64,000 nucleotides of DNA, from the NCBI GenBank assembly GCA_965204535.1, contig OZ241996.1:852335-916334 (forward strand), written 5' to 3'. Shown one piece after another: positions 15,689 to 49,462 of the stretch. How positions within the stretch are numbered: the stretch's first letter is position 1; each line of letters begins with the position of its first letter. Made by a program: the position numbers and the translations under genes. A model generated the notes under the pieces. It had not been told where the DNA came from. It worked only from the letters and a program-made list of their open reading frames with translations, and ran no database searches. The DNA comes from a bacterium. GTDB lineage: Bacteria; UBA8248.

Positions 15689-15864
15689 CGCGCGCCTCCT
15701 TGTAAAGGGGTGGATGATGGCGGCGAAGAACGTCCTCTCCCCGACGCCCCTCCGCCGCCCCCTCCCGGCCGGACTCCGCCTCTCGGGGGCGCAGAGCCAC
15801 CCCGTCGGCGGGAAAGACGGCGGTCCGGTTGTTCAGGGGAGTCTTCGTTCGGCCTGGGGGCCTT

Positions 15865-24800: not shown

Positions 24801-25179
24801 CTCCCGACCCGGAGGAAGCCTTCCCTGGTTCGATGAGAGAGGTGAACGCCCGCCCAGGATGCGAGAGAGGCTCGTCTGCTCTTATCAGTGGCATTAGCTC
24901 TTCCTGCGTGATGTCCCATCGTGCCACACGTGCTCGCTGCGCCAACCCCTGCGGGGTCCTCCACTGCGTTCCGGCCATGACTCGCAAGGCGGGAGCGCCG
25001 TCGCGGAAAGCACGCGGCCGAGGCTCCGCGCTCGCAGGCTCGCTTGTGCGCCCGCACCACCCGCGCACTCCCCGCGACGGGCCTTGCGGCCATGGTGGCT
25101 TTGCTGCGCGCGCGTGGAACGGATGGGCATCACGTTCGGAGGCTGGCTCCGGGCGAACGACTTCCAAAAGGAGAGAATC

Positions 25180-26100
25180 ATGCACGACATCCACGATCAC
25201 GAAGCACGGAACGAATCCTTCACCGCCATGGTATGCGAGCAGGCGCAGCTGTTCGGCGCGACCCCGGGGCCGGACGAGTTCGACAACCGGCCCGTATGGG
25301 GCGAGGCCGAAGCCACCGCCGCCGTCCTCAAGGCATTCCACCTGCTCGCCGAGGCAGCACCCGACGGAACGCAACTCGCCGATGAGCGGGCGAGCCTGTT
25401 GTGGGGCTTCGTCAACACCCTCGACGCCCAGACACAGCGGCTCGACCGCGCCGCCGACAAGCTCATCCCCGGCATCCGTGAAATGCAGCGCGAGCAGGAC
25501 GGCTCCGAGATCAGATCGCGCGAACTCGAACTCGCCACCGACCGGGCCGAGAACCTCACCGCCCGCCGCGACGCCTTCGAAGGACTGCGCGACACGGCCG
25601 CCGAGGCCTACCGCGTCGAGACCGGCGAGGTATGGCGGCCCAGGAGAGGATCGCACGTCAGCCAGACCGGCAAGCTCACGTCGGCGGTGATCGAGGCGCG
25701 TGACTTCCAGCGTGCGAAAAAGGACCGCGAGAACACGGCCCACCTCCCCCAGGGAACGCTCGTCGCCGTCGCGGGAGGCAAGGAAGCCACCGACGCCGGC
25801 AAGATCATCGGCCAGCTCGACAAGCTGAAAGCCAAGTACGCCGACGTCGTCCTCGTCCACGGCGGCGGCCCGGGTGCGGAGAAGGTCGCGGCAGGCTGGG
25901 CCGAGCGGAACGGCGTCCACCAGATCGTCTGCAAGCCCGACTGGGACGCCCACGGTCGGGCCGCTCCCTTCAGGCGCAACGACGAACTGCTCTCCCTCCT
26001 CCCCAAGGGCGTGATCGCGTTCCCGGGTTCGGGCATCACCGACAACCTCGTCGACAAGGCCCGCACCCTCGGCATCCCCGTGCAACGCGTGGCCGCCTGA
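25180..26100 (+). CDS. DUF2493 domain protein (paralog of 6045-6965)
   Basis: The start is at MHDIHDHEA (ATG 25180, RBS AAGGAGAG). It is about 95% identical by eye to the left copy. Confidence 0.8.
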   Translation: MHDIHDHEARNESFTAMVCEQAQLFGATPGPDEFDNRPVWGEAEATAAVLKAFHLLAEAAPDGTQLADERASLLWGFVNTLDAQTQRLDRAADKLIPGIREMQREQDGSEIRSRELELATDRAENLTARRDAFEGLRDTAAEAYRVETGEVWRPRRGSHVSQTGKLTSAVIEARDFQRAKKDRENTAHLPQGTLVAVAGGKEATDAGKIIGQLDKLKAKYADVVLVHGGGPGAEKVAAGWAERNGVHQIVCKPDWDAHGRAAPFRRNDELLSLLPKGVIAFPGSGITDNLVDKARTLGIPVQRVAA

Positions 26101-26132: not shown

Positions 26133-27947
26133 GGAGACTGTGAAAGTATTCCCACGATTCTGGTGGGTGACGCTGGCGAGCGATGCCCGGGTTGTCTGTA
26201 CATGCTATCTTTACCGGTGAGTGAGATAACCACATAAAGGGTCACCACCATGTCCGAGAGACGTTATCAGGAGGTGCAGTCCCGAAGCCAGATGATGCTG
26301 CTTCCGCCGTGTCTGGACGACTACGTGTCCGAGCACAATGCGGTGCGCGCGATCGATGCGTTCGTCGGCACGCTGGACCTGGAGGCGCTGGGGTTCGCGC
26401 ATGCCGAAGCGAACTGCGGCGCCGGTCAGCCGGCTTTCGACCCGGCGCTGCTGCTGAAGCTGTATCTGTACGGCTACCAGCACCGGGTACGGAGTTCGCG
26501 CCGTCTCGAAGCGGAGACGCGGCGCAATCTGGAAGTGATCTGGCTGTGCCAGGGTGCGACGCCGAGCTACAAGACGATTGCGGATTTTCGCAAGAACAAT
26601 GTGGCTGCGCTGCAGGAGGCCAACCGGGAGTTCGTGCTGCTGTGCCGCGAACTCTCGCTGCTGGGCGGCAGCCGGGTGGCGGTCGACGGGACTTTTTTGA
26701 AGGCCGATGCGAACCTGGACAGCTTCCAAACCAAGCGGTCCCTGGCAAGGGACCTGAGGCGTTTGGAGAAGAGGATTGCGGCGTATCACCGGCAGTTGGA
26801 CGAGGCGGATGCGCGCGGGGAGGAGTGTGGGGACGGTTCGGAGGATCCGGACCTGCCGGTGAAGCTCAAGGCCTTGATCGAGAGGCAACAAAAGAAGAAG
26901 GCACTGCAAGAGCATTTGCAGGAAAGCGGAGAGCGTCAGGTATCGGGGGTCGATGCAGATGCTCGACTTCTGAGGAACGGCGATATAATGGTGGGCGGAT
27001 ACAACTGCCAGATCGCGGTGGACGACAAGCACAAGCTGATTGTCGCGGAGGATGTGGTGCAGGACGGCAATGACTCCGCTCAGTTGGAGCCGATGATGAC
27101 GAAAGCCGGCGAAGCCATGGGCAGCGAACGCCTGGTCGGCCTGGCGGATTCGGGCTACTTCAACGGCGCACAGTTGAAGAGTTGCGAAGACAAGGGAATG
27201 GAGGTGTATGTTCCGATACCGAACCAGACGGCCCGCAAGGGCAAGGACGGACGATTCGGCAGCGATGAATTCCGTTACGATGCGCAGGATGACACGTATG
27301 TCTGTCCGGCCGGAGAGCGTCTGGTTCGAGGCGGCACGACCACCGTCAGGGGCAGGCTGTATTACTTTTATCGCGGGACGGCGGCGGTTTGCCGGGACTG
27401 TTCGTTGTCGGGCCGATGCCTGACAAAGTCGAGATCGACGCGCAGGATACAACGCTGGGAGCATGAGGACGTGGTGGACCGGCATCGCAAGAAGATGAAC
27501 GCCCGTGTGCCATTGATGCGCGGGCGAAGCACACTCGTCGAACATCCATTCGGTACGATCAAGCGCTGGGCGGGGATGGATCATTTTGTGATGCGCGGAC
27601 TCGGCAAATGCCGCGGCGAATTCAGCCTGATGACGCTGGGTTACAACTTCAAGCGGGTCATGCGTGTGCTGGGCGGAGCTGCATTTGTGGAGCATTGTCT
27701 GCAAAAACAGCGGTTGGGGACGAATGGCGTGTGAACTTGAAGCCGATTCTTCGAGGACTTGACCGCGACCCCGAGCTGACCGGCCGCCGAGACGTTTCTC
27801 TCCCGGCTCTGCGGTGTTGTTGCTCCCGAAGTTGAAGACAGTGTCCGGCCATCGGGCTGCAAGCGTAAGCGAGCCCTGTTCCGGAGACTGTGAAATCCAA
27901 TACTCGAAGCATGGGCAGCGAACGCCTGGTCGGGCCTCACAGTCTCC
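26133..27947 (+). mobile_element. IS1182-family insertion sequence (right end rearranged; boundary tentative)
   Basis: The left end ggagactgtg (26133-26142) is matched in inverse by cacagtctcc at 27938-27947, and again at 27996-28005. The uninterrupted target can be inferred from the homologous left copy. Confidence 0.55.
26250..27734 (+). CDS. IS1182-family DDE transposase
   Basis: The N-terminal motif is PAFDPALLLKLYLYGYQHRVRSSRRLEAETRRNLEVIWLC. A central coiled coil follows, then the DDE region AVDGTF...LADSGYF...HPFGTIK. Confidence 0.85.
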   Translation: MSERRYQEVQSRSQMMLLPPCLDDYVSEHNAVRAIDAFVGTLDLEALGFAHAEANCGAGQPAFDPALLLKLYLYGYQHRVRSSRRLEAETRRNLEVIWLCQGATPSYKTIADFRKNNVAALQEANREFVLLCRELSLLGGSRVAVDGTFLKADANLDSFQTKRSLARDLRRLEKRIAAYHRQLDEADARGEECGDGSEDPDLPVKLKALIERQQKKKALQEHLQESGERQVSGVDADARLLRNGDIMVGGYNCQIAVDDKHKLIVAEDVVQDGNDSAQLEPMMTKAGEAMGSERLVGLADSGYFNGAQLKSCEDKGMEVYVPIPNQTARKGKDGRFGSDEFRYDAQDDTYVCPAGERLVRGGTTTVRGRLYYFYRGTAAVCRDCSLSGRCLTKSRSTRRIQRWEHEDVVDRHRKKMNARVPLMRGRSTLVEHPFGTIKRWAGMDHFVMRGLGKCRGEFSLMTLGYNFKRVMRVLGGAAFVEHCLQKQRLGTNGV

Positions 27948-28039
27948 TCCACCCCGGCGGCGCGGCCCGTCGCTTCCCGTGCTACTTCAACGGCGCACAG
28001 TCTCCTCCACCCCGGCGGCGCGGCCCGTCGCTTCCCGTG
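27938..28039 (+). repeat. 44-bp direct repeat x2 (IS end cacagtctcc plus 34 bp of target) separated by 14 bp
   Basis: 27938-27981 equals 27996-28039. The 14-bp spacer ctacttcaacggcg, together with the 8 nt (cacagtct) that follow it, matches the 21-nt transposase-internal sequence at about 27154-27174. Confidence 0.85.
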
Positions 28040-28364
28040 TCGTTCGTCTGCTTGTGATAATAAGCGCAAGTTGCAGCGCCTCCTGCACCCTCCGCTTGTG
28101 AATCCAGGCGCAAGGTTCAGCACTCTCACCCCTCTTGCCCCTCGCTCTGTCCGCTCAAGCGCCGCGGCGGCTCCCGCTCGCCATTCTCTCCGGCGAAAAT
28201 TCCCCCGTCTCTCGTTCTCACGAATCCGGCAATCTGACGCCATTCGGCGCTTCGGGTTTCACACCGGACGCATCGCTGATGCAGGTGTCGCGTTGGTGCG
28301 GCTGCCCGCGATATGCTGTGAAAATTCGCATCCCCGAGTGTTCCTGTCATGCCGAAACAAGTAA

Positions 28365-28507
28365 TACCAATCTGGTAGCACACGAACCTTTTGAAATTAT
28401 TTCACTTAGAGAATCGCGTATGCTCATGTAATACGGGGAGTTCCTGCAAGATACCAGATTGGTAGTACACGGAGGCGCGCTGCGCTATGATGGCTACCAT
28501 TTTGGTA
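28365..28507. promoter_or_regulatory. three copies of a 13-bp palindromic motif TACCA-N3-TGGTA upstream of the RHH gene
   Basis: The copies are taccaatctggta (28365-28377), taccagattggta (28452-28464) and taccattttggta (28495-28507). A related gaccagactggta lies at 5577-5589 in the left module. Confidence 0.6.
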
Positions 28508-28639
28508 GTTCATGAAACGGCGTCACGAGCATCAATTTTGGGCCCGATGCGGGTGTGATTGGTACAGGAAATGAGAATTTTTGCGGTCGTTTTGCGACCG
28601 GTACGGATGAAAATCTTGTTGAGGGGAGCGGCGAAACGG

Positions 28640-29008
28640 ATGGTTCAGACGATACAGAAGAACATCAGGGTCACGCCCGAGCAGTGGAAACGAATTGAAA
28701 ATGAGGCCGAAAAGCGCGAAACATCACCCAACCGACTGGTGGTAGAGCTCGCGATGGAAGCCCTGGAGCGCCGCGAATGGCCCCGAACCGAAGCGGAAAT
28801 CCACCTCCTGCGCTCTGCAATGTTCATCGCACAGGCCATCATCCGCGACATGGAAAGGAATGGACGCAAGGAAGAGATCGAGCAAATCAGCAGAAATATC
28901 TCCGAAGTCGCGCCGGAATTGCCGGACAAATCGGTCAAGGAGCTAAGAGAGCAGGCGGATCCGCGGAGTGTTAATCTGCGAGACGACCTTTCCGATCAGA
29001 TTGATTAA
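28640..29008 (+). CDS. ribbon-helix-helix-like protein (putative relaxosome accessory/regulator)
   Basis: The start is uncertain (ATG 28640 chosen within ORF 28559-29008). The motif is NIRVTPEQWKRIENEAEKRETSPNRLVVELA. The architecture matches 4916-5302 although GC is low. Confidence 0.5.
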   Translation: MVQTIQKNIRVTPEQWKRIENEAEKRETSPNRLVVELAMEALERREWPRTEAEIHLLRSAMFIAQAIIRDMERNGRKEEIEQISRNISEVAPELPDKSVKELREQADPRSVNLRDDLSDQID

Positions 29009-29203
29009 GGCGAGTAAAGCCATCAATATTAGCAAAAAACACAAGAGCAGAAACATCTCGCAGCCCAGTGCTTTGTCCTTAATCGTGTAATTAAAGTCAT
29101 GGAAAGAGGGGTATCTTCGACCTATCGCATTGACGGCTAGCACCGAGCGGTTCTCTATCTGTGTAAGTCTAGGTCAAACAGTTCACGGACAATCAAAAAG
29201 GCG

Positions 29204-30025
29204 TTACAACTTGTTTTCGAATTCTCGCAGAACGAGGCGTCCGCATGCAGAAAATGGAGCCGCACCACTCTTGATCTCTTCAACTTTCTCCTTGAGCTTG
29301 CTCATTGCATCTTTATTGTCGTGTTGCTGCAACTTTATTGACCTAATTAACAACTTGATCAACCATCTTGTGTCGTCGATGTACTTTCTCCTCGTGTCCA
29401 GTAGGGTTTCGCGAGCATTCAGCCCAAAAATGTCAATACACTTTTGCCCGCGGTCTGTCTTAGCGATTATGACACCGGTATCATCGACTTCAAGGTGATC
29501 CTCGGGATTATCCTCTACAGGATTGAGCAGCATAGGGGACTCTTGCGATTCTTCACCCATTTTTCTTGCTCTAGTCCCCCATATGGGAAATTGATCCCAC
29601 TTTCCGATCCGCCGACCTGTCTTTGTAGTTGAGGGTCTATTGCAGTCTGCGCAAGCAAAAAGAAGATTCCGCCATTCGTATGCGAGCCAATAGTAGCCCG
29701 GGTGTGGCTTTGTCGTACCACCTTCAGTCTCAATCTTAATGACTTGCCTCGTCTCATCAGTTACGCGATTCTTGGGCCGCCAATGTTCAATGTCTCCACG
29801 ATTATTCACCTGTACATGGGACTCGCAGTACACGCATTTTCCGTAGAAAGGCGCGTTTCCTGATTTATATACGCGCTGCATACGCCGGTCCTTATACAAG
29901 TTTGTGACTTTCGGTTTCTGCCCTTTCTCCACACTCTCAACCAGTTTGTCACGGGCAACATCGCATGCTCGGCGCCATTCTTGCCATTCTGCGTTCGTCG
30001 GCTCCTGAAAATCGATCTTGATCAT
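29204..30025 (-). CDS. ptuB: HNH nuclease, Septu PtuB-like (TIGR02646-type)
   Basis: Motifs are CVYCES...GDIEHWRPK and LLFACADCNR. The gene starts 11 nt after the upstream ATPase gene. Confidence 0.6.
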   Translation of the reverse strand: MIKIDFQEPTNAEWQEWRRACDVARDKLVESVEKGQKPKVTNLYKDRRMQRVYKSGNAPFYGKCVYCESHVQVNNRGDIEHWRPKNRVTDETRQVIKIETEGGTTKPHPGYYWLAYEWRNLLFACADCNRPSTTKTGRRIGKWDQFPIWGTRARKMGEESQESPMLLNPVEDNPEDHLEVDDTGVIIAKTDRGQKCIDIFGLNARETLLDTRRKYIDDTRWLIKLLIRSIKLQQHDNKDAMSKLKEKVEEIKSGAAPFSACGRLVLREFENKL

Positions 30026-30036
30026 ATGTGCTTATC

Positions 30037-31329
30037 CTAGGCGCCGAACAAATCGCGGAGTTGTCTTCGCGTCTCTAATCCCAGCGCGTCGCTGTCCAAG
30101 TCCTCTAGTACCATTTTGCTCAAAGTGTCGCGAACGGCTTTTTCCACCATGCGCTGCAACTCCGTCTCCGGCGTCCCAAGCGTCTCATCCACAGTCTTCC
30201 AGAGGTTCTCAATTTCCTCGCGAGTGTCATTGTCTGGTGAATTTTGTCGTTTCAATTCAGCGTAACGCTCGATGTTCTGAATAACGTCGTCGCTAGTCGT
30301 CCATGGCAGCCCAAACAGGTACGAGGTGAGCACCTGGTCCGCACGTTGACCCCTTGGTGGATGAAGATTTGATCGAACTTCGACACTATCTTGACCCTGT
30401 TCAAAAAGGATCAACTGGCAGCATTCGTCGGAAAGCGAGGCCGACCCAATGGCAGTCAATGGCGCGTGTGTGCTTGCGATGAACTGAACACCGGGAAATT
30501 CCTCAGCAAGCACTCTAACCATTTCACGTTGCCACGATGGGTGGAGATGCCTTTCCATTTCATCGAGAAGTACGATCCCCCGAACATGAACATCGAACTT
30601 GCTGCGGGTAGCGAGAAGCGACCATCCGAGAAAGTCACAGATCCACGCGAGCGTTGCGGCATATCCATCGCCGAGCGCGCCTGCGGGAACATAATCACCC
30701 CAAAACCCGCGAACCCGCAGGCCGGAAGAATCCAGAACGGTAGAGCCGGGTTGAAGCATTAGAATTCGATCAATCTGCTGTAATAGTTGCTCGATATTGA
30801 CTCCCTCCCGTGAGATGCGAAAGAGTGCATTCTCGGGATTCTGGAGTCGAGCCGTATAATTAAAGAGGGAATATACGGCATCGATAAGGCGGTACTGTTC
30901 ATAGACTTCACTTCCAATGGTACCGAACGCAGCCCCATAACCACACGCGAGTAGTTCCGAGCGAGAAAAGCCTTTATCCGGGTTGATTCTTTGTTTAACA
31001 TCCTCGGTGTTCGCATCGTTTCTCTCAAAAGTTGTGGTTATCGTATAGGTTTCGTTCGACTCAGTTGTGGAAACAAGTTGCAGTTCTATTTCAGCTTCCT
31101 TGCATCCATTGCGAATGACGTTCCCCGATAACTCGGTTAGAAGACCAGAGGCTCCCGTTTGATCGCAAAGACACATGGCGATGCAACGCAACAAGCTCGT
31201 TTTGCCCATGCCATTATTACCGAGAAGCAGTGTCCAACTCGCGTTTTCTTGAGAGGGTGGGGAGAGATCAATTTCCACCTTTTCAAAGCATTTGATGTTG
31301 GTAAGCTTAATGCGGGAAATGTAGAACAT
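30037..31329 (-). CDS. ptuA: AAA/ABC-type ATPase, Septu PtuA-like
   Basis: The N-terminus is MFYISRIKLTNIKCF. Walker A is GNNGMGKTS and Walker B with the following motif is IVLLDEMERHLHPSWQ. Confidence 0.6.
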   Translation of the reverse strand: MFYISRIKLTNIKCFEKVEIDLSPPSQENASWTLLLGNNGMGKTSLLRCIAMCLCDQTGASGLLTELSGNVIRNGCKEAEIELQLVSTTESNETYTITTTFERNDANTEDVKQRINPDKGFSRSELLACGYGAAFGTIGSEVYEQYRLIDAVYSLFNYTARLQNPENALFRISREGVNIEQLLQQIDRILMLQPGSTVLDSSGLRVRGFWGDYVPAGALGDGYAATLAWICDFLGWSLLATRSKFDVHVRGIVLLDEMERHLHPSWQREMVRVLAEEFPGVQFIASTHAPLTAIGSASLSDECCQLILFEQGQDSVEVRSNLHPPRGQRADQVLTSYLFGLPWTTSDDVIQNIERYAELKRQNSPDNDTREEIENLWKTVDETLGTPETELQRMVEKAVRDTLSKMVLEDLDSDALGLETRRQLRDLFGA

Positions 31330-31770
31330 CCGTGCAACCCCAATCTTACTTTATGTCAGTTCCGAGCAGATTTGCCCCGGATAGTTCAGACCACTAACGA
31401 CAATGACCCTTGAGTATAATGTTAGTTTGACCGTCGAGGATATCTCAATTCGGACGCCTCCCACAACATGAGGAATTACAGTCTGCTGGAAATGAAAACA
31501 AAATGGGTTATGTCTTACTTATCCTCTAATTTCCGAAGGGACGCCCGGCAGGTATTGTGGGACTACGACAAGTGAATTCTAGGCCAGTCCTGCCACCAAT
31601 TTCTACAACGTGTGCTCCCCGTGAAGATGCAGATCTTAGTGCCGGACAAGTATTAGGGGAATTAAGGCCAGTTGAAGGAACACTTAATAAATGGTTTCGT
31701 TATTAAGGCTCGATTAGTTAAATCTTAGTAAAGGAGGTTATTACAACAGCGACTATTGCTGCGCTTCAAT

Positions 31771-33141
31771 TTAGCCAAAGTGTTTGGCCTGCTCCTTTGG
31801 AAGCTGTTCTCTTTCTGTTTCGTTGAATTCCCGTGTCGTGACCCGAGTATGTGCCAGAGGTCGCCGAACGGACTCAGGCGATATTCCGCCGCGAATCGCA
31901 CAAAGCACGCCCGCCGCCTCCCAATAATTCTCGACAATATAGAGTTGATCGGAACGCCAAGGCAGCTTGGTCAAATCATTCTCCATCAGGTTCTTGTTTT
32001 CCCGCACGGCTACTACCGGAATGCCCTGCTCTAATGCAGCTAAAGTTGGTAATCCGACGCAACCATCGGGTATTACCAAACACGAAATATCGGATGCCGA
32101 TATGACACCGGGCTCGGAAATCTGAGACAAATCGGTAACAATTCGTGGACTTTTGTGAAGCCCTTTCAAAACACTCTCGAAAAATGTGAGGGAAATCGCT
32201 TCCGCCGCCATGCGCGGATCTACCACGCCTGGATCCCGATTCGCTATATCTTGGGTTTCGAACATCGGCGAATGGGCCGAGGGCATATTGAATCGGCTTG
32301 ATACGGCATGGGTGAGCATAGCTTCCACACCACCCCAAGGATTCACCATTTCTCCTGCGGCATCGAAGTATCCTTGGTGAAACTCCTCGGGAACCGAGAT
32401 AACCGAGGAAATTGCGACCGCATCGTATTCCCCTTCTTGCTCTTCGAGCACCGCAAAAACACGTTCGATACCACTGATTTCACCGGCAGCGGTACCAAAA
32501 TCGGTAAACTCGGACCTCATCTTCAGTGGCGGTGAAAGTTTGATTACTTCGGGGCAAACCAAGCCGTAGGACGAGCGTGCCGCACTCACGGCGTTTATCG
32601 CGGCGTTCACGAACAAATCGTCTTTGTGGGCATCTATAATGACCAACACCCGGTTGGCTCGTGTTGGAACGAGGCCGATAGTTCCCATCAACAAACGAGC
32701 GATTACGCTACCTTCGACATATAGAGAATTAGCTGGCATCTCGTTAATGTCGGATGCGTTGACCACGTTTGGATGTAGGATCAATGTATCGCAAGTTTCG
32801 GCGATCAGCCTTGCGGCCGACGTCGCATCACCCGCGTGGCCACCAATTTCGGCGCCTATACCCGTTGGAATCAAAAATGCGACATTAAACTGGCTCGTGT
32901 TCTCATACTTGCGCGGTACAAAATCGAATACCGAGATACCCGAGAGGTCGCCAAGTTGAGGCGACGTTTCTAAGCTGCTGATCGCACAACTAACATGGCC
33001 GCCATTTGACTTCGTAATCGCGAATCTGAGAGGTGCGATATTAGCAGTTAACCGAAAACGTGCGGCTTCTCGAATTTGTGAAAGCGCATTTTGCCTATCA
33101 AGTGCTATCGGCAGTTCAAGTTCCAACTCTCTCAAAAGCAA
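31771..33141 (-). CDS. DUF3326-like protein (456 aa)
   Basis: TTG start at 33141, 7 nt after AAGGAG. Motifs IPTGIGAEIGGHAGDA and LILHPNVVNASDINEMP are ones I recognise from DUF3326. An N-terminal extension of about 85 aa is present. Confidence 0.55.
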   Translation of the reverse strand: MLLRELELELPIALDRQNALSQIREAARFRLTANIAPLRFAITKSNGGHVSCAISSLETSPQLGDLSGISVFDFVPRKYENTSQFNVAFLIPTGIGAEIGGHAGDATSAARLIAETCDTLILHPNVVNASDINEMPANSLYVEGSVIARLLMGTIGLVPTRANRVLVIIDAHKDDLFVNAAINAVSAARSSYGLVCPEVIKLSPPLKMRSEFTDFGTAAGEISGIERVFAVLEEQEGEYDAVAISSVISVPEEFHQGYFDAAGEMVNPWGGVEAMLTHAVSSRFNMPSAHSPMFETQDIANRDPGVVDPRMAAEAISLTFFESVLKGLHKSPRIVTDLSQISEPGVISASDISCLVIPDGCVGLPTLAALEQGIPVVAVRENKNLMENDLTKLPWRSDQLYIVENYWEAAGVLCAIRGGISPESVRRPLAHTRVTTREFNETEREQLPKEQAKHFG

Positions 33142-33163
33142 TTCATTCTCCTTACACTACCTA

Positions 33164-33628
33164 TCACAATGTGCGTTCAATAAATGTCTTTTTGAAGGAT
33201 ACCGCCTTAAAGCGTTTGCTCGTAAATTCCGCTGCGACGTCTGGATCAAAAGGTTTGCAGGAAAAGATGTTCACATAAACTGCGCCTAGGATGTCCAGCG
33301 TATGAATGACGATGGTGCTCGTCAGTATGAAACAGACGGCTGAAGTGCCCTTGGTGTGCGGCAGCGTTTGCTGCTCCTCCTCGGGAACTCCTACGTCATC
33401 CCAAAAGTGAACCTCACACTTTTCCATTTCAATCAGGTCGCAAAGATCGGTGAAGAACTTGTCAATATAATCCCGGTTGAAAAATCTGGCTTCACATCCC
33501 ATCAGGTCAAGAACGAGCTCAAAACCATATACTTGACGACTAGCGGTGTCATCATTTTGACTTGCTAAACTCTCATCTACAGCATTTGGGGCCGCATGTC
33601 TCATCAAGCTACTCACCATTCGACTCAC
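33164..33628 (-). CDS. S-adenosylmethionine decarboxylase (pyruvoyl, PF02675)-like protein with a non-canonical processing site
   Basis: GFELVLDLMGC...GTSAVCFILTSTIVIHTLDILGAVYVNIFSCKPFDP aligns by eye with bacterial SpeD/SpeH (G.H...DL.GC ... ESH..IHT.PE....D.F.C). The Glu-Ser site is replaced by Thr-Ser. The start is GTG 33628, abutting the upstream TAA, or ATG 33619. Confidence 0.55.
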   Translation of the reverse strand: MSRMVSSLMRHAAPNAVDESLASQNDDTASRQVYGFELVLDLMGCEARFFNRDYIDKFFTDLCDLIEMEKCEVHFWDDVGVPEEEQQTLPHTKGTSAVCFILTSTIVIHTLDILGAVYVNIFSCKPFDPDVAAEFTSKRFKAVSFKKTFIERTL

Positions 33629-34831
33629 TTAGGACTCTACAGTACCACGCATACGCTGAAACAACCTTTCAAATCCCATACCTGTAACTACTGCCCATAC
33701 TACAGAAAGCCCAGCGTTCAACAATCCAGGCTTCGACAAATCTGGAACAGCGGCTCCACTCTTTATCAGTTCACCCGCAAGAGCAGAAAAAATCAAAATT
33801 CCGGCTAACAGGCCTAGGGGAGCGCCCAATACCATTCGCCATAGCTCCCTCTTCCCAGAAGTAGAACCGACTTCAACTTCGTTAGAATTCCTTAGACCAA
33901 TCAATGCACTGGCAATTGACCCCGCAACACCGAGATAGCCCCAATTCAGAGCGCTCAATGAAAAAGCATATGAATGTGTAGAATCAGGTATTGAATATAG
34001 TATAGGGAGAATCCCCATTAAAGTGAAAACAACTACGCCTACCGAGCCACAAATTCTGATGCTTGAGACGATTGTCGAGCCTTCCGCCCAGTTATATTCA
34101 TAGTCAGCTACATGCTCACGTAGTGAGCGGAGATTTGCACGCAGCGCCTCGACCTTATTATTTTTCTCGTCTTCTTTCTTTTCAATCTCTCGCTCCAGAT
34201 CATCTATGTTGGAAGTGATCTTCTCTTCCCAACTATAATAAAGACTGACATCGTAAGAAAATGCATCTCCATCTGCATATTCCTTAAGTTCTTCAAGGCT
34301 TGAGCGGGCACGTGCCTTAAGGTCTTCAATTGGTAGAAAATCAATCAGTAGGCGGTTTAATGTGAGGATTTGAAACTCCGTCCATCCATCAGGACCCAAA
34401 TTTTCCAACCGGGACACTTCACTCTTTATTTGCTCCTTCCTTGCAGCGAGGCTGTCTAACATCTCAGGCTTAGTGGATTTCAGGTCAATGTTTTTCGCTT
34501 CTTGGATAAGCGCTTCAACTACACTTAGATCTTCTTTCCGGGCCTTATGGACAAATTGCCTGTGGCGAATGACAAACTCGGACACTAATCCTGATAGAAA
34601 TCCCGCTAATGCGAGATAAGTGCAATATGTGCATTTGGGAGCAGTTCCAGGGTTCCCAAAAATTTGGTTACAAATATAGATGACGTAAAGAATGCCAACT
34701 CCCATCACGACTCTGGCAAAATAGAGAAAATAGCGACGCCAGAACGGGAGTTCAGGTGGAAGCTTGTCTTCCGGGGAGGTTTTTCGTCGCTGGATAGTTT
34801 TAGATTGTCCCTCATCAACTTGGTCTGGCAT
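33629..34831 (-). CDS. polytopic membrane protein with a central coiled-coil-like domain
   Basis: Two N-terminal and about four C-terminal hydrophobic helices flank about 200 charged residues (EEKITSNIDDLEREIEKKEDEKNNKVEALRANLRSLRE). No family recognised. Confidence 0.6.
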   Translation of the reverse strand: MPDQVDEGQSKTIQRRKTSPEDKLPPELPFWRRYFLYFARVVMGVGILYVIYICNQIFGNPGTAPKCTYCTYLALAGFLSGLVSEFVIRHRQFVHKARKEDLSVVEALIQEAKNIDLKSTKPEMLDSLAARKEQIKSEVSRLENLGPDGWTEFQILTLNRLLIDFLPIEDLKARARSSLEELKEYADGDAFSYDVSLYYSWEEKITSNIDDLEREIEKKEDEKNNKVEALRANLRSLREHVADYEYNWAEGSTIVSSIRICGSVGVVVFTLMGILPILYSIPDSTHSYAFSLSALNWGYLGVAGSIASALIGLRNSNEVEVGSTSGKRELWRMVLGAPLGLLAGILIFSALAGELIKSGAAVPDLSKPGLLNAGLSVVWAVVTGMGFERLFQRMRGTVES

Positions 34832-35347
34832 TTGTCATTTCGTCTCCGCAAATTCCCTGTCTTTGGGCTGTTCACGAACATAGGGCGATTCACGCGAACT
34901 GCCCTAGTACGGAAAGGCGAATAAAAACAAACAAATTTGAATAGACCGTGAGTCTATCTTTTGAAGATCGAACCGGTCAACCGAGGAGACTCGCCCTTAC
35001 ATCCATCCCCTCTGTCTTTTCTATTCCCCCGTGTTCGTGCTTGCTTTGCAGCTGTTTTTCATGAGAAGCGCACATGGAGTGGGGAGGCGGAGCATCACTT
35101 CATCGGGCGCGCTCGGCGAGGCGGCCTTATTCCTGCGTAGCACCGCTTTGCTCGACATCTTGTTCAATTTCTTCTACCCATTGGGGCCACAGCTTCGTGC
35201 GAACAGAAAGTGGATTTCCCTCAAGGGAATCTGGAGCCTCTCGTTCACGATGGGCATGAAATGCAAGGTCCTCGGGTAGGGACGGCTCTTGAGGGAAGTA
35301 CATTTCCCTATCAGTCTTGACGATTCTGCCTCATATACTTCACCATC

Positions 35348-35806
35348 GTGATTGACCCAAGCGAGAGGACCCATTGGTTGGACAAGAAAAACCTCACCGA
35401 GCAGGACATTCGCACGAAATTCATCACGCCAGAAGTACTTCAGGTGGAGTGTTACGTGAGGACACAGATGCGAGAGGACGTGCGCCTGACGGACGGTCGT
35501 ATCAACGTGTACGGCAAACTTGTTAATCGGCGCAAGGGTAAGCGGGCCAACAACATCTTAGAGTACAAACCCAACATCCCCATCGCCGCCATCCAAGTAA
35601 ATGACAACAAACATGCAATAGGCGACGTAATGCAGCAGTCAGTGTATTGCGCTGAGATGGCTGATGTTCACTTCATCTTCTCCTCGAACGGAGACGGCTT
35701 CGTCATTCACGACAAAACGGGCGTGGATAAGACTGTACTTCCACAGGCTATCCCCCAGCTAAGTGTTAGTGACGACAGCCACAAACTGTACACGATAGCG
35801 GGATAA
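35348..35806 (+). pseudogene. hsdR: N-terminal stub of a type I restriction R subunit (decayed)
   Basis: LTEQDIRTKFITPE...DGRINVYGKLVNRRKGKRANNILEYKPNIPIAAIQVNDNKHAIGDVMQQ...FIFSSNGDGF matches the HsdR N-terminal nuclease domain. The expected E-x-K core reads QVN, and the ORF stops after about 150 aa with no helicase part. Confidence 0.6.
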
Positions 35807-35830
35807 CTCATGGAGAATTAGAGTAGCAAC

Positions 35831-38230
35831 ATGGCCCTAAAAAAATCCGAACTCTATTCATCGCTGTGGTCGAGTTGTGACGAACTGCGGGGCGGCATGG
35901 ACGCCAGTCAGTACAAGGACTACGTCCTCGTTCTGCTGTTCATCAAGTACGTCAGCGACAAATACGCCGACTTGCCTTACGCGCCGATAACTGTTCCGAA
36001 GGGCGCGAGCTTTTCCGACATGGTCGCTCTGAAGGGAAAGAGTGACATAGGCGACCAGATCAACAAGACGGTCATCGCACCGCTGGCAAACGCCAATAAA
36101 TTATCTGACATGCCGGACTTCAACGACGCTACCAAGCTGGGTACCGGTAAGGAGATGGTGGACCGGCTTACGAACCTGATCGCCATCTTCGAGAACAAGG
36201 CACTCGATTTTTCTAAGAACCGCGCCGATGGAGACGACATACTCGGCGACGCTTACGAATACCTGATGCGTCATTTCGCCACAGAGAGCGGCAAGAGCAA
36301 GGGCCAATTTTACACGCCGGCCGAGGTCAGCCGCATCATTGCGCGGATTATCGGGATCCATGATGCCAATACTAGCGCCTCCACCACCGTCTACGACCCT
36401 ACCTGTGGGTCCGGTTCTCTGCTGCTTAAGGTCGGTGATGAGGCCGCCACCCCAGTCACGCTCAACGGGCAGGAGAAGGACGCTGCCACCAGCGGCCTCG
36501 CTCGGATGAACATGATTCTTCATAACAATCCGACTGCGCTGATCGTGCAGGGCAACACGCTGGCGGACCCTAAGTTCAAAGAAGGCGACAGCCTGAAAAC
36601 CTTCGACTATGTGGTCGCCAATCCACCCTTTTCGGACAAACGGTGGAGCACGGGTTTGGACCCGATGAGCGATCCCTTCGAACGCTTTAAATCATTCGGA
36701 ACGCCGCCTGCCAAGCAGGGTGACTACGCCTACTTGCTGCATATCGTCCGATCTCTCAAGAGCACAGGCAAAGGCGCCTGCATCCTGCCGCACGGCGTGT
36801 TATTCCGGGGCAACGCCGAGGCGGACATTCGCCGCAATCTCGTGCGCAAGGGCTACATCAGGGGCATCATCGGGCTGCCTGCAAACCTATTCTACGGCAC
36901 TGGCATCCCCGCTTGCATCGTAGTCATCGATAAAGAGGACGCCCAGTCACGGAAGGGCATCTTTATGATCGACGCTAGTAGCGGTTTCATGAAAGATGGG
37001 CCCAAGAACCGGCTACGAAGCATGGACATCCACAAGATCGTGGATGTCTACAATAAAGGGCTTGATGTCCCGAAATACGCACGTATGATACCCTTCTCGG
37101 AGATTGAGCAAAACGAGTTCAACCTCAACTTACCGCGCTACATCGACAGCCAAACGTCCGAGGATATACAAGATATCTCGGGTCATTTGCAGGGAGGCAT
37201 CCCCGCCTCGGATGTCGATTCACTGGATCAATTCTGGACCATCTTTCCAGAGTTGCGGTACAGCCTGTTCCATAGAAACCGACCTAGCTATCTCGACATC
37301 GTTGTGGAGAAATCCGCTATCAAATCCACCATCTATGGGCACCACGAGTTCGTCTCCTTCATCGCGGATATGAACGCACATTTTGCCGTGTGGCGGGAAT
37401 CGAGCTCCGCGAAGCTCAAGACTTTACAAGCTGGCTGCCATCCAAGAGAGATCATCACTCAGCTTTCTGATGATCTGCTCGCGCACTACGCCAACAAGCC
37501 GCTCATTGACCCCTACGATATCTATCAGCACTTGATGGATTACTGGGCCGAGACCATGCAGGACGATTGCTATCTGATCGCCACCGACGGATGGAAAGCA
37601 GAGGCTGATCGTGTTATCGAGATCGATAAGAAAGGCAAAGAGAAGGACAAGGGCTGGGTCTGTGACCTCATACCTAAACCCCTCATCGTCGCCCGTTACT
37701 TCTCCGAGGAACAGGCCGCCATCGACCAACTTATAGTTGAACTGGATAGCGTCACTTCTCGCCTCTCCGAACTGGAGGAAGAGCACAACCGTGAGGATGG
37801 GTTGTTCGCTGAACTCGACAAATTAAACAAGACCAATGCCACCGCCAGGTGGAGAGAAATCAAGGGCGACAAAGACGCGACCGAAGAAGTCTACGTGCTG
37901 AACGATTGGTTGAAGCTCAAAAAGGAAGAAACCGACCTCAAGAAGCGTCTCAAGGAAGCCGAAGCCGCGCTCGATGGTCAGGCTTACGCCCAGTATCCGA
38001 AGCTCACTGAACCCGAGATCAAGACACTCGTGGTGGACAACAAATGGCTTGCCACTCTGGATGTGGCCATCCACGGCGAGATAGACCGAGTGAGTCAGCA
38101 ACTCACTCAACGCGTGAGGGAGTTGGCCGAACGCTACGAAATGCCACTGCACAAGTTGCTTGAACGAGTTGTTGATCAGGAAACTAAGGTGAAACGCCAC
38201 CTCGTAACGATGGGATTCAAGTGGACGTAA
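35831..38230 (+). CDS. hsdM: type I R-M DNA methyltransferase subunit with a long C-terminal extension
   Basis: Motif I is DPTCGSGSLL and motif IV is VVANPPFS. At 799 aa it has about 300 aa of charged, coiled-coil-like sequence after the methylase core. Confidence 0.9.
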   Translation: MALKKSELYSSLWSSCDELRGGMDASQYKDYVLVLLFIKYVSDKYADLPYAPITVPKGASFSDMVALKGKSDIGDQINKTVIAPLANANKLSDMPDFNDATKLGTGKEMVDRLTNLIAIFENKALDFSKNRADGDDILGDAYEYLMRHFATESGKSKGQFYTPAEVSRIIARIIGIHDANTSASTTVYDPTCGSGSLLLKVGDEAATPVTLNGQEKDAATSGLARMNMILHNNPTALIVQGNTLADPKFKEGDSLKTFDYVVANPPFSDKRWSTGLDPMSDPFERFKSFGTPPAKQGDYAYLLHIVRSLKSTGKGACILPHGVLFRGNAEADIRRNLVRKGYIRGIIGLPANLFYGTGIPACIVVIDKEDAQSRKGIFMIDASSGFMKDGPKNRLRSMDIHKIVDVYNKGLDVPKYARMIPFSEIEQNEFNLNLPRYIDSQTSEDIQDISGHLQGGIPASDVDSLDQFWTIFPELRYSLFHRNRPSYLDIVVEKSAIKSTIYGHHEFVSFIADMNAHFAVWRESSSAKLKTLQAGCHPREIITQLSDDLLAHYANKPLIDPYDIYQHLMDYWAETMQDDCYLIATDGWKAEADRVIEIDKKGKEKDKGWVCDLIPKPLIVARYFSEEQAAIDQLIVELDSVTSRLSELEEEHNREDGLFAELDKLNKTNATARWREIKGDKDATEEVYVLNDWLKLKKEETDLKKRLKEAEAALDGQAYAQYPKLTEPEIKTLVVDNKWLATLDVAIHGEIDRVSQQLTQRVRELAERYEMPLHKLLERVVDQETKVKRHLVTMGFKWT

Positions 38231-39435
38231 GACCAGGCTACAAGCGGACCGGGGTTGGAGTGATCCCAACAGATTGGGAAACACCAACGCTTGGCTGCGT
38301 AACGGTACTGATGACCAATGGGTTTGTAGGCACAGCAAAATCTCATTACGTCAGCAACGAAAAAGGAGTGCTCTATATTCAAGGCTATAACGTTGATGAG
38401 AACACATTCAATTTTCATGGGGTAAAGTTTGTCAGTGAGGATTTCCACCAAGCCCACATGAAATCATGTCTTCAGGGCGGTGATTTGCTTACTGTACAGA
38501 CAGGAGAGGTAGGTCAAACCGCTATCGTTCCTGATTCGTTGGCAGGTTCTAACTGCCACGCGCTGATTATTTCACGGTTTGACCGAAAGAAAGTTTGTCC
38601 GGCTTTTATCTCTCAATATCTGAACAGTAAACCTTGTCGAGCACGTCTCAAATCGATTGAGACCGGTACAACAATGAAGCATTTAAACGTAGGGGATATG
38701 CTACATTTTATCATTCCTCTTCCTCCCACGCTCACCGAACAAGAAGCTATCGCCAGAGCATTAATCGACGCAGATGCTCTTATCGAATCTCTGGAACGAC
38801 TCTTTGCCAAAAAGCGGCAAATCAAAACAGGCGTCATGCACGAATTGTTTACCGGTAAGAAACGCCTGCCGGGCTTCAATGGGAAATGGGAAGTGAAACG
38901 ATTGGGTGAGATTTCTGAGATCGTTATGGGACAATCTCCAAACTCCATATATTACAACAATAAAGGGGATGGACTTCCCTTGATTCAAGGAAATGCCGAC
39001 ATCTATAGTCGCCAGACCATAAAGCGTGTATTCACCACAGAAGTGACAAAACGGGGTTACCCTGGAGATATTCTAATGTCCGTTCGTGCGCCTGTGGGCG
39101 AAATCTCTCGCACGGTTTTCGACGTTTGCTTAGGACGAGGTGTTTGCGCGATCCGATGTCCGCGGACCGATTTTCTCTATTACGCCCTAATCGCCAGAGA
39201 GCGAACCTGGGCAAAGTTCTCGAAGGGCTCAACTTTCGATTCAGTAAGCTCAACAGACGTCAAAAAGTTTGAAATTGAACAACCTAAAGACGAAACCGAA
39301 CAAATCGCTATTGCCACTATCCTTTCCGAGATGGACACAGAAATCACCGCACTAGAAGCCAAGCTCTCTAAGGCTAGGCAACTAAAGCAAGGTATGATGC
39401 AGGAACTGCTTACTGGAAGGATTCGCCTCATATGA
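38221..39435 (+). CDS. hsdS: type I R-M specificity subunit
   Basis: GTG start overlaps the hsdM end by 10 nt. Two target-recognition halves are separated by conserved helices (LTEQEAIARALIDADALIESLERL, and C-terminal EQIAIATILSEMDTEITALEAKL). Confidence 0.85.
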   Translation: MDVRPGYKRTGVGVIPTDWETPTLGCVTVLMTNGFVGTAKSHYVSNEKGVLYIQGYNVDENTFNFHGVKFVSEDFHQAHMKSCLQGGDLLTVQTGEVGQTAIVPDSLAGSNCHALIISRFDRKKVCPAFISQYLNSKPCRARLKSIETGTTMKHLNVGDMLHFIIPLPPTLTEQEAIARALIDADALIESLERLFAKKRQIKTGVMHELFTGKKRLPGFNGKWEVKRLGEISEIVMGQSPNSIYYNNKGDGLPLIQGNADIYSRQTIKRVFTTEVTKRGYPGDILMSVRAPVGEISRTVFDVCLGRGVCAIRCPRTDFLYYALIARERTWAKFSKGSTFDSVSSTDVKKFEIEQPKDETEQIAIATILSEMDTEITALEAKLSKARQLKQGMMQELLTGRIRLI

Positions 39436-41402
39436 AAATCTCGACTGTCCTCGATCACATCGACAGCGGCCATATGGCCTTGCCCGAATTTCAGCGCGGC
39501 TATGTCTGGAACCGTGACCAGGTTCGGGGCCTTTTCGACTCGCTCTACCGCCGGCATCCGGTGGGTGGGCTGCTGGTCTGGGCCACGGAATCCAAAACGG
39601 CCGCGCATCGTGGTGACGGGGCGCTGGTTGCTGGAGTCGTAAAGTTGTTGCTCGATGGCCAGCAGCGCATGACCTCGATCTATGGCGTGGTGCGCGGCGA
39701 ACCGCCGAAGTTCTTCGATGGCAACGAAAAGACCTTTACCACGCTACGTTTCCATCTGGATACGGAGACATTCGCTTTCTACCAACCGGTGAAGATGAGA
39801 GATGACCCGCTCTGGATCGACGTAACCGAACTGATGCAAGCAGGCACGGCCGGCCTAGGTGAATTCATCACGCGACTAGGCACCTATCCAGAACTTACGA
39901 ACAAGATGGGTGATTATGTGGCGCGGTTAGGCAACCTCCTAAGCATTACTGAAATCGACCTGCATGTGGAGGAAGTAACTGGTGTCGATAAAACATTGGA
40001 TATAGTGGTCGACATTTTTAACCGCGTGAACAGCGGCGGCACGAAACTCTCCAAGGGAGACTTGGCGCTCGCTAAAATATGCTCCGACTGGCCCGAAGCA
40101 CGCGACACCATGAAGGCTAAACTCGCGGAGTGGGCAAAGGCCGATTATCACTTCAATCTCGACTGGCTTTTACGGTCGGTAAACACGGCACTGACCGGGG
40201 AGGCGAAGTTCCAGTTCCTGCATGACAAAAGTGCAGAAGATATTCAGGGAGGCCTTAAGCGGGCTATAAAACACATCGACACCAGCCTGAACCTAATTGG
40301 CGGCCGGCTTGGTCTAGATCACGACCAAGTCTTTTTCGGCCGCTTCGGCGTCCCAGTGATGGTGCGCTATCTCGACCAACGTAGCAGTCCGATGAACGAG
40401 GTCGAGCGAGACAAACTCCTGTTCTGGTTCGTGCAGGCAGGCATGTGGGGGCGGTTCTCCGGATCAACGGAGTCCTTTATTGACCAGGATCTGGCGGCAT
40501 TGGAAGGCCCGGGTGGCAGCCTGGACAAATTGCTGGAACAGTTACGTCTTTGGCACGGCGGGTTACGTGTAGAGCCAGAGCATTTTGCGGGCTGGAGTAT
40601 TGGCGCACGCTTCTACCCAGTACTCTACTTACTTACGCGGATGGGTCAGGCGCGCGATTGGGGCACTGGACTGCCGCTCAAGGCCAGCCTGCTTGGGAAG
40701 ATGAGCCGGCTGGAGATGCACCACATTTTCCCGAAGTCGCAACTATACAAGTGGAAGTGCGATCGACTAGAGAAGTACAAGCGGCCAGAAGTGAATGCTT
40801 TGGCCAACTTTTGTTTTCTGACAAAAGATACCAATCTTGATATCAGTAACCGATTGCCATCTGAGTATTTTCCGGAGGTCGAAGAGGCGTACCCTGGCAC
40901 CCTGGCATCGCAGTGGGTCCCTATGGATCCAGCACTTTGGCGGATCGAAAACTTTCGCGACTTTCTTGAAGCTCGCAAAGTATTGCTGGCGGACGAGGTC
41001 AACCATCGTATGGAAGAGCTCCTGCACGGTGACATCCGCTGGCTGACTGGCTCGAAGGTGACTGTCCCGGCGGCGGATGGAGTCGTCGGGGGTATCAGCA
41101 GTGAAGAAGAGGAGGCCCAACTTGAAGTTTTAAATAACTGGATGGAGGCACAGGGTCTGCCGCGTGGCGTGTTAGCTTACGACTTCGCCGACACCGCCAC
41201 TGGCCAGCAAAAGGCGGTGTTCGACCTGGCTTGGCCTAGAGGTATTCAGGCGGAACTTAGCCAGCCGGTGGTCGTGCTGCTAAACGAAGGCAGCCAGACC
41301 ATCGCCATTGCCAGTCAAGCAGGATTTAGGTGCTTCACGACGACCGTCGAGTTTCAGCATTACGTGCGAACAGAGGTCTTGTCCGAGGTTGCATCTGCAT
41401 GA
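39432..41402 (+). CDS. DUF262 (ParB-like NTPase) plus C-terminal HNH/DUF1524-like protein, GmrSD family
   Basis: Motifs are LPEFQRGYVW, LLDGQQRMTSI and the C-terminal MHHIFPKS...NFCFLTKDTN. It has ATGA overlaps with hsdS (39432-39435) and with hsdR (41399-41402). Confidence 0.8.
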   Translation: MKISTVLDHIDSGHMALPEFQRGYVWNRDQVRGLFDSLYRRHPVGGLLVWATESKTAAHRGDGALVAGVVKLLLDGQQRMTSIYGVVRGEPPKFFDGNEKTFTTLRFHLDTETFAFYQPVKMRDDPLWIDVTELMQAGTAGLGEFITRLGTYPELTNKMGDYVARLGNLLSITEIDLHVEEVTGVDKTLDIVVDIFNRVNSGGTKLSKGDLALAKICSDWPEARDTMKAKLAEWAKADYHFNLDWLLRSVNTALTGEAKFQFLHDKSAEDIQGGLKRAIKHIDTSLNLIGGRLGLDHDQVFFGRFGVPVMVRYLDQRSSPMNEVERDKLLFWFVQAGMWGRFSGSTESFIDQDLAALEGPGGSLDKLLEQLRLWHGGLRVEPEHFAGWSIGARFYPVLYLLTRMGQARDWGTGLPLKASLLGKMSRLEMHHIFPKSQLYKWKCDRLEKYKRPEVNALANFCFLTKDTNLDISNRLPSEYFPEVEEAYPGTLASQWVPMDPALWRIENFRDFLEARKVLLADEVNHRMEELLHGDIRWLTGSKVTVPAADGVVGGISSEEEEAQLEVLNNWMEAQGLPRGVLAYDFADTATGQQKAVFDLAWPRGIQAELSQPVVVLLNEGSQTIAIASQAGFRCFTTTVEFQHYVRTEVLSEVASA

Positions 41403-49458: not shown

Positions 49459-49462
49459 GGCG

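Follow-up and report, generated by a model that had tools for sequence, protein, structure and literature searches.

A three-gene operon at positions 31771-34831 of a 64,000-nucleotide (nt) stretch of bacterial DNA (the window; GTDB lineage Bacteria; UBA8248, assembly GCA_965204535.1, contig OZ241996.1, positions 852,335 to 916,334) is a real, conserved, and unnamed unit of defence islands, and it probably encodes enzymes of amine or polyamine metabolism. The operon, hereafter the trio, consists of genes for a membrane protein (g1), a relative of the pyruvoyl-dependent S-adenosylmethionine (SAM) decarboxylases (AdoMetDC; g2), and a protein of the DUF3326 family (g3). Judging from sequence and from published relatives, the trio may be a self-contained, mobile operon that makes a polyamine-type amine, with a g2-g3 core that is also carried by phages, and the probability of this reading is put at about 50%. 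The parts of the operon are the following:

33629-34831, minus strand: g1, ATG start, 400 amino acids (aa), intact open reading frame (ORF)
33164-33628, minus strand: g2, GTG start, 154 aa, intact ORF
31771-33141, minus strand: g3, TTG start, 456 aa, intact ORF
33148-33153, minus strand: AAGGAG ribosome-binding site of g3, 6 nt 5' of the TTG, read from the sequence
34945-34980, minus strand: putative promoter-like element 5' of g1, match of a consensus scan

As read from the sequence, the GTG of g2 directly abuts the TAA of g1 (spacer of 0 nt), and the TGA of g2 (33166-33164) is followed by 22 nt and then by the TTG of g3 (33141). The coordinates, the two spacers, the AAGGAG, and the TTG start were thus as the original prediction for this DNA, a model's note made from the letters and a list of ORFs, had described them, and its claim of low GC was confirmed as well, with 0.45-0.52 over 31-35 kb compared with 0.62-0.70 in the flanks outside about 28.5-48.5 kb.

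The trio was followed through bacteria with a g1-profile scan of one genome per species, which gave 13 loci, and further loci were added via homologues of g2 and g3. The 13 loci were in metagenome-assembled genomes (MAGs) of Nitrospirales, Entotheonella, Gamma- and Alphaproteobacteria, Scalinduaceae, Omnitrophota, SAR324, Verrucomicrobia, Opitutales, and Thermodesulfovibrionales. The order g1-g2-g3 was identical in 29 of 29 bacterial loci from about ten phyla, which indicates that the arrangement is not due to chance and that the three genes are conserved as a unit. Identity to the window ranged from 33 to 83% for g1, from 52 to 86% for g2, and from 52 to 90% for g3, so that g1 is always the most divergent of the three, and g2 and g3 were closely spaced or overlapping in most loci. 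The trio is a conserved, horizontally mobile unit. On one MAG chromosome (OZ245330.1) two copies were observed (L002, 8782-10000, and L011, 10001-11219), at ~298 kb and ~671 kb, in one of which a frameshift splits g1 into two ORFs while g2 and g3 are intact.

The promoter-like element of the window reads TTGACC, an 18-nt spacer, and TAGACT, and the spacer contains the inverted repeat ATCTT-CAA-AAGAT between the -35 and -10 hexamers, which may be an operator. The 36-nt block was kept 5' of g1 in six loci (the window, L021, L006, L007, L001, and L003) with the consensus TTGAYC, 18-nt spacer, TAGACT, and the flanking genes vary among these loci. Because the block is kept despite differing neighbours, the cassette appears to move as a self-expressing unit. 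An Rfam scan of 31200-35500 found no riboswitch and no other RNA.

Both family assignments made earlier, g2 as AdoMetDC-like and g3 as DUF3326, were confirmed. The g2 protein matched Pfam AdoMet_dc (PF02675; E=2.3e-15, 57.3 bits against a cut-off of 25) over model positions 2-106 of 107, and phrog_3125 (E=1.3e-15), which is labelled "S-adenosylmethionine decarboxylase" in PHROG. The site ILT-S-TIVIHT of g2 aligns to VISE-S-HLTIHT of the T. maritima AdoMetDC, and in this alignment Ser55, Ser63, His68, and Cys83 of T. maritima correspond to S96, S104, H109, and C124 of g2. S104 is thus the counterpart of the pyruvoyl-forming Ser, the others are those of processing and catalysis, and g2 retains all residues required for self-cleavage. 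The four were invariant in 22 g2 homologues and nearly so in 72, and the residue before S104 (Thr103 in g2) makes the site Thr-Ser nearly always in the g2 clade. The g2 product is thus predicted to be a proenzyme with the class 1b AdoMetDC fold, similar to SpeDC, that cleaves itself between Thr103 and Ser104.

According to work of the Michael laboratory, decarboxylases of arginine (SpeDA) or ornithine (SpeDC) have evolved several times from class 1b AdoMetDC homologues, in bacteria and archaea as well as in phages (PMC10407285). The original prediction set the Thr-Ser of g2 against the canonical Glu-Ser site, but Thr-Ser is no oddity, as both validated SpeDC domains with readable sequence cleave at Thr-Ser, in the context "QLIETSL(V/I)SGHF...Y(I/L)D(I/V)FSC" (PMC10407285 supplement). 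The site of g2 therefore fits the amino-acid-decarboxylase branch and not the Glu-Ser of true AdoMetDC. In a BLASTP comparison, g2 matched a validated SpeDC domain over its full length with 46.2 bits (E=3e-12, 30% identity over 111 aa), whereas the AdoMetDC domain of the same fusion protein gave 19.6 bits (E=0.01); the reference sequences were taken from optical character recognition text of the PMC10407285 supplement, and these values are approximate. SpeDC is diagnosed in PMC10407285 by four residues close to the site of processing (Gln, Thr, Phe, and Tyr). At the positions inferred for them from the text of Fig. S5, g2 has the Thr before the Ser and the Tyr in "VYVN", but not the Gln and the Phe (see below). 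The identity of g2 to the nearest SpeD of a GenBank phage was only 28-30%.

These data also bear on the naming of g2 as a SAM decarboxylase in the original prediction, which has to be revised. In such a case, DUF3326 would be a new aminopropyltransferase acting on decarboxylated SAM, or the pair would drain SAM, and the Pfam and PHROG matches, the adjacency of a decarboxylase and a second enzyme as in speD-speE, and the SAM-using methyltransferases that are often adjacent all fit this view. Nevertheless, it is very improbable: the NCBIfam equivalog for SAM decarboxylase (TIGR03330) gave g2 only 30.1 bits, below its cut-off of 75.65, the site is Thr-Ser, and g2 is much closer to the ornithine-decarboxylase-type domain than to the AdoMetDC domain. 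Furthermore, the place of g2 can be taken in phages by a decarboxylase of the PS_Dcarbxylase (PSD) family and in the pav operon by a pyridoxal phosphate (PLP)-dependent decarboxylase (both described below). Neither enzyme belongs to the SAM decarboxylases, and the product of PavA and PavB has C5 units instead of aminopropyl units.

The g3 protein matched DUF3326 (PF11805) with E=9.8e-89 and 298 bits over model positions 3-336 of 337. The match covers residues 88-425, which form the DUF3326 core, with the Gly-rich loop PTGIGAEIGGHAGDA after the first strand; residues 1-87 form an extra N-terminal alpha/beta domain ahead of it. At E<=0.001 the family comprises about 6,900 protein clusters, and among the best 120 of these the identity was 61-90%. 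The Pfam entry presumably spans bacteria and eukaryotes. No Pfam family besides DUF3326 was found for g3 even at E<=10, NCBIfam and PHROG gave no family for it either, and sequence and profile searches of the PDB returned nothing relevant. Structure modelling, which had been proposed earlier for all three proteins, was run on g1 and g3. The AlphaFold2 model of g3 (predicted local distance difference test, pLDDT, 76) gave only weak flavodoxin-like fragments (lumazine synthase) in a Foldseek search of the PDB and no match in BFVD. No sequence or fold likeness could be detected between g3 and homospermidine synthase (HSS), SpeY, CASDH, or SpeE, and relative to HSS, SpeY, and CASDH g3 is at most a functional analogue. 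A comparison by hhalign of the N-terminal domain with g2 and with the DUF3326 core revealed no relationship. A 611-aa match (P0309) was considered as a fusion of g2 and g3, but it proved to contain DUF3326 twice through an internal duplication, and the fusion was ruled out.

The g2-g3 pair has a far broader distribution than the trio and, without g1, is frequent in phages as an accessory module. A g3-profile scan of IMG/VR yielded 65 viral contigs with DUF3326, and 50 of these carry a g2-like gene directly upstream. The viral g2-like genes encode about 120-130 aa and often overlap the start of the DUF3326 gene, and the viral DUF3326 proteins are shorter (about 330 aa), without the N-terminal domain; a full-length g3 without g1 was found in L031, where the upstream genes have no PDB relatives. 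Genes for the terminase large subunit, portal proteins (including a T4-type portal), a DnaB-like helicase, a UvsX-like recombinase, and capsid proteins lie near the viral pair, and the contigs are real phage contexts. A tblastn search with g3 gave no match in GenBank phages or PLSDB plasmids. On two large viral contigs (L033/L037, 173-241 kb), g2-g3 are directly followed by an ORF of 2150 aa (11253-17705) with 10-11 hydrophobic segments and without a Pfam family, which might be a different membrane partner. Homing-endonuclease genes (GIY-YIG/NUMOD3 and HNH) were observed directly upstream of DUF3326 in L045 (9289-9999), L056 (9411-9998), and L058 (9466-10005); in L056 and L058 they lie between the g2-like gene and DUF3326, and the partner in L045 is PSD-like.

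Viral loci that lack g2 show other partners of DUF3326. Nine have a PSD-family gene beside DUF3326 (PF02666, E down to 3e-26), with a Gly-Ser cleavage motif by eye and a pyruvoyl decarboxylase fold unlike that of g2. An ornithine cyclodeaminase-family gene adjoins DUF3326 in L034. On the T4-like contig L046, the genes for a PSD-like decarboxylase, DUF3326, and an agmatinase-like protein are grouped next to the portal gene, and the agmatinase-like gene has agmatinases as its top PDB matches (E=1e-24). In a recent preprint, PavA and PavB (DUF3326) were both required for N-(5-aminopentyl)pentane-1,5-diamine, a C5 analogue of homospermidine and proposed intermediate of pavettamine, which is a polyamine toxin, and PavA contains a PLP-dependent module like lysine or carboxynorspermidine decarboxylase (bioRxiv 10.64898/2026.06.12.731819). 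DUF3326 is thus accompanied by three unrelated types of decarboxylase, namely the AdoMetDC-like type, the PSD family, and the PLP-dependent module of PavA.

A two-step module for an amine or polyamine is the most economical interpretation, since DUF3326 recurs with three decarboxylase types and occupies the place of an amine-joining enzyme. Genes for SpeDA and SpeDC cluster with a triamine-forming enzyme, which is HSS, SpeY, CASDH/CASDC, or SpeE (Li et al., JBC 2023, PMC10407285), and the agmatinase-like and ornithine cyclodeaminase neighbours of the viral genes match the logic of the published SpeDA/SpeB/SpeY and SpeDC/HSS clusters. In the proposed mechanism, g2 would be a pyruvoyl amino-acid decarboxylase of the SpeDC branch that supplies or finishes an amine by removing the alpha-carboxyl group. 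A basic amino acid, or a carboxylated conjugate, would be decarboxylated, and DUF3326 would form the C-N bond; g3 would thus join amine units to a product that is expected to be triamine-like, in a slot that is filled elsewhere by HSS, SpeY, CASDH, or, for pavettamine, PavB. The gene order and its conservation, the catalytic residues, the families, the exchange of partners, and the genomic settings were observed directly, whereas the substrate, order of steps, cofactor, and product, and with them the chemistry of DUF3326, are inferred. The g1 protein would most likely move the substrate or product across the membrane or tie the enzyme pair to it, and the cassette would travel as cargo of defence islands and conjugative elements. 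Export, import, and anchoring by g1 are guesses, and they are the weakest part of the model.

The pavABC operon is a close known parallel: it is also a three-gene operon in which a DUF3326 protein acts with a decarboxylase. In contrast to the trio, the decarboxylase of pavABC is an alanine-racemase-fold PLP module in the 1119-aa PavA, where it is fused to a Rieske domain, the third gene encodes a JmjC-like hydroxylase instead of a membrane protein, and the operon is confined to Burkholderia s.l. The SpeDC/SpeDA clusters resemble the trio in having a small class 1b pyruvoyl enzyme with a Thr-Ser site beside a triamine-building enzyme, and also in their horizontal transfer and phage homologues. 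The trio differs from them in its partner, which is DUF3326, in its dedicated membrane gene, and in its place in defence islands rather than polyamine loci, and g2 is about 30% identical to the SpeDC domain, without every inferred diagnostic residue. Phages encode AdoMetDC homologues of about 117-122 aa that are ornithine or arginine decarboxylases, and these are accompanied by synthases for homospermidine or spermidine (Li et al., PNAS 2023, PMC9992855). The g2-like genes of IMG/VR are similar to these in size and phage setting, but the GenBank phage records searched encode no DUF3326. In the papers searched on DUF3326 and on SpeDC with homospermidine, no DUF3326 partnership of this kind was described, and in those searched on DUF3326 (PF11805), AdoMetDC in defence, and SpeDC with homospermidine there was no account of the trio operon.

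Several observations weigh against an amine-synthesis operon of this kind. At the position inferred for the SpeDC Gln, the trio clade has Cys, whereas most phage relatives have Gln, and where SpeDC has the Phe of "GHF" the trio clade reads "IHT"; because of these two substitutions, the substrate of g2 is perhaps not ornithine. The chemistry of DUF3326 is a guess by position, since the family has no solved or recognisable fold relative, and the likeness of PavB to g3 consists in the shared Pfam family. The g1 protein resembled no transporter family in Pfam, in the Foldseek search of the PDB, or in the g1 profile search. Finally, the association with defence islands and the fast divergence of g1, both described below, suggest a role in conflict that a plain metabolic cassette leaves unexplained.

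The PSD-family partners and the phage settings also raise the question of whether the pair decorates a macromolecule. DUF3326 would then attach an amino-acid-derived group to DNA, an envelope lipid, or peptidoglycan, and decarboxylation would follow in place, with g1 as the membrane-side partner; phages would modify their DNA or virion in this way, and bacteria their surface. In the reactions of AdoMetDC, PSD, and CANSDC, the alpha-amino-acid moiety that is decarboxylated already forms part of a larger group, and the substrate might be lipid-like or tethered, as a partner of the PSD family suggests. In addition, g1 is embedded in the membrane, and the phage copies are often beside head and packaging genes. 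On the other hand, no transmembrane (TM) segment was predicted in the PSD-like viral partners, a survey of the nearest neighbours in viral loci found no recurrent genes of DNA modification such as those for hydroxymethylases, DNA kinases, or glycosyltransferases, the triamine that depends on PavA and PavB is a free one, and the agmatinase and ornithine cyclodeaminase neighbours point to metabolism of free arginine or ornithine. Decoration of a macromolecule is thus considered improbable, and the synthesis of a free polyamine-type amine is preferred.

The g1 protein is predicted to be an inner-membrane protein of an orphan family that is found only beside g2-g3. Hydropathy, charge, and the AlphaFold2 model (pLDDT 79) indicate six TM helices, with the N- and C-termini inside and a predicted cytoplasmic helical domain of 171 aa between TM2 and TM3. 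No Pfam, NCBIfam, or PHROG family was found for g1, and Foldseek gave no PDB match below E=0.5. A g1 profile searched against 1.84e9 representatives retrieved one compact family of 216 clusters at 50% identity, in which there was no added domain, no informative fusion, and no remote link. With the g1 hidden Markov model, the gene was detected in 29 of 29 bacterial loci and in 0 of 65 viral loci, so that the co-occurrence with a membrane gene considered in the original prediction holds for g1 in the bacterial loci and not in the viral ones.

The genomic contexts of the trio are rich in defence and mobile-element genes. Such genes lie within 10 kb in about 13 of 17 informative contexts and comprise restriction-modification (R-M), CRISPR-Cas, SIR2, Septu, toxin-antitoxin, abortive infection (Abi), and insertion sequence (IS) or recombinase genes. 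The following contexts were recorded, with the neighbours within 10 kb:

L021/L022: island of the window, found again in a second genome
L001/L023/L024: CRISPR-Cas I-C and IS elements
L002/L011: DUF4011 helicase, integrase, ResIII, HepT/MNT
L019/L020: SIR2_2
L025/L026: N6_N4 methyltransferase and AAA_5
L027/L028 and L010: methyltransferase and CfrBI endonuclease between accA and tilS (type II R-M)
L029: toxin-antitoxin, serine recombinase, IS1595
L095: IS elements, HATPase_c_3
L096: HsdR, PIN, M78/DUF4411, AbiEi
L098: ResIII and a large methyltransferase
L097: metabolic genes only

Type I R-M genes are near the trio in the window, L021, L014, L096, and probably L017, and a pooled Pfam scan of six further loci gave two complete type I R-M sets, McrBC, ArdA, and a reverse transcriptase.

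In the window, the trio is flanked by a PtuA-like ATPase and an HNH protein on one side and by a type I R-M system with an inserted GmrSD gene on the other, and a SIR2_2 gene lies further along. Pfam supported the PtuA-like ATPase (AAA_15/21/23), HsdM, GmrSD_N, YgjP, and SIR2_2, so most of the neighbours named in the original prediction stand; the 273-aa "PtuB" is without a Pfam match and has an HNH-like CxxC...H...CxxC pattern by eye. The statement that no polyamine genes such as speE are nearby holds for the adjacent genes, which is the part that was checked. A 152-aa ORF at 35348-35806 (plus strand), between g1 and hsdM, has no Pfam match, is in the same place in L021 with 82% aa identity, and by eye resembles at its N-terminus the N-terminal domain of type I HsdR or of other PD-(D/E)xK proteins.

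The island is repeated in a second genome of 4.2 Mb, where L021 1-16867 corresponds to window 28011-44627 with 79-90% DNA identity and with the common order YgjP-HsdR-GmrSD-HsdS-HsdM-orf152-trio-PtuA-PtuB. The amino acid identities between the window and L021 are as follows:

More conserved products: GmrSD 93%, HsdM 91%, HsdR 90%, g3 90%, g2 84%, PtuA 83%, PtuB 75%
Strongly diverged products: g1 58%, HsdS 35%

HsdS is the specificity subunit of R-M systems and is hypervariable; it is the only product besides g1 that has strongly diverged. Within g1, variability is greatest in the loops that are predicted to face outward. The genes for PtuA- and PtuB-like proteins flank the trio only in the window and in the syntenic L021/L022; in L003-L005 there is only a 243-aa AAA_21 ATPase that is non-adjacent, and the pair is missing in all other contexts examined. 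The trio was therefore rejected as a part of Septu.

It is possible, if somewhat unlikely, that the trio was selected as an anti-phage or anti-plasmid defence, in which the enzymes make or deplete a small amine upon infection and g1 is the sensor or effector. For example, an intracellular polyamine could be raised to block phage replication, or ornithine or arginine could be drained. This proposal concerns the selected function and is compatible with the biochemical model. It is favoured by the frequency of defence and mobile-element genes given above, and defence-island screens rely on such neighbourhood evidence. It is also favoured by the divergence of g1 within an island in which the neighbours are 75-93% identical and only HsdS is as divergent, by the variability of the outward-facing loops, and by the horizontal spread over about ten phyla with an own promoter-like element. 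According to one report, accumulation of intracellular polyamines hinders phage replication in P. aeruginosa (PMC9992862), which makes a polyamine-based defence conceivable.

Other observations do not favour defence. PADLOC-DB 2.0 contains no model that matches g2 or g3, and the sole match of g1 was a weak one to LmuB (E=2.7e-4) that involves a coiled coil; no named system matches the trio, in agreement with the original prediction. The trio has no recognisable sensing, nuclease, NADase, or pore-forming domain, the neighbours in L097 are purely metabolic, and the enzyme pair is common in phages, often beside packaging genes. Among the MAGs that carry the trio, many have names such as Entotheonella, Tectomicrobia, or Nitrospinae or derive from long-read assemblies of the ENA, and the MAG names together with ankyrin-repeat proteins of the window (22831-24144 and 58285-60132, the second also with Sel1 and PG_binding_1) suggest a sponge-symbiont-like host. 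Genomes of sponge symbionts are expected to be rich in defence genes, and a high background rate of adjacency is expected because many of the source genomes look like MAGs of this kind.

Metabolite-based defence with membrane effectors is represented by CBASS, Pycsar, Thoeris, and type III CRISPR with CorA. The trio is like these systems in being a small defence-island operon of small-molecule enzymes and a membrane protein, but it contains no cyclase, TIR, SIR2, or nuclease domain and has no PADLOC match, its enzymes are assigned to amine metabolism, and phages commonly carry the two enzymes but not the membrane protein. The pattern of metabolite-based defence put forward in the original prediction is thus in keeping with the bacterial contexts and not with the phage copies; because the g2-g3 pair is common in phage genomes without the membrane gene, a simple picture of a host defence enzyme does not fit. 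The prediction had also named a housekeeping or polyamine setting of the homologues as evidence against defence, and this was found in part, as DUF3326 is linked experimentally to polyamine synthesis through PavB. A scenario in which host and phage contest one amine is rather unlikely: the trio would be an anti-phage system of a new kind, with g1 as its quickly diversifying sensor or effector, and phages would carry the bare pair, in which the decarboxylase can be exchanged, for replication or as a counter-measure.

Several further features of the window and of related loci were observed. A TrwC relaxase-helicase (1074 aa; 1599-4823), a NikA-like mobilisation protein (28559-29008), and a YAcAr/SLOG protein (25084-26100) are encoded in the window, which looks, from its gene content, like a conjugative or mobilisable element with the defence island as cargo. 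A 494-aa DDE transposase (DUF772, DDE_Tnp_1, DDE_Tnp_1_6) lies at 26250-27734 (plus strand), just left of the low-GC island, and related transposases adjoin the trio in L001/L023/L024 and L095. A perfect tandem duplication (48505-55358, period 3421 bp, body without mismatches) directly borders the low-GC island on the right. Each copy encodes a 290-aa DruA-like protein (PF14236) and an IS66-family transposase of 784 aa, and the repeat may be genuine or may stem from the assembly.

Apart from one preprint of 2026, DUF3326 has no assigned chemistry, and the trio provides the concrete hypothesis that DUF3326 carries out the amine-joining step of a new polyamine route. The neofunctionalised AdoMetDC enzymes would thereby be extended to a new clade with a new partner. 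The trio is a compact cassette with a promoter-like element of its own that is found repeatedly beside R-M systems, and its membrane protein changes as quickly as a specificity subunit does. If host and phage do contest an amine through these genes, a new class of amine-joining enzymes would begin with DUF3326. If a role in conflict holds, the trio would be, to our knowledge, the first dedicated polyamine-type module of defence or counter-defence.

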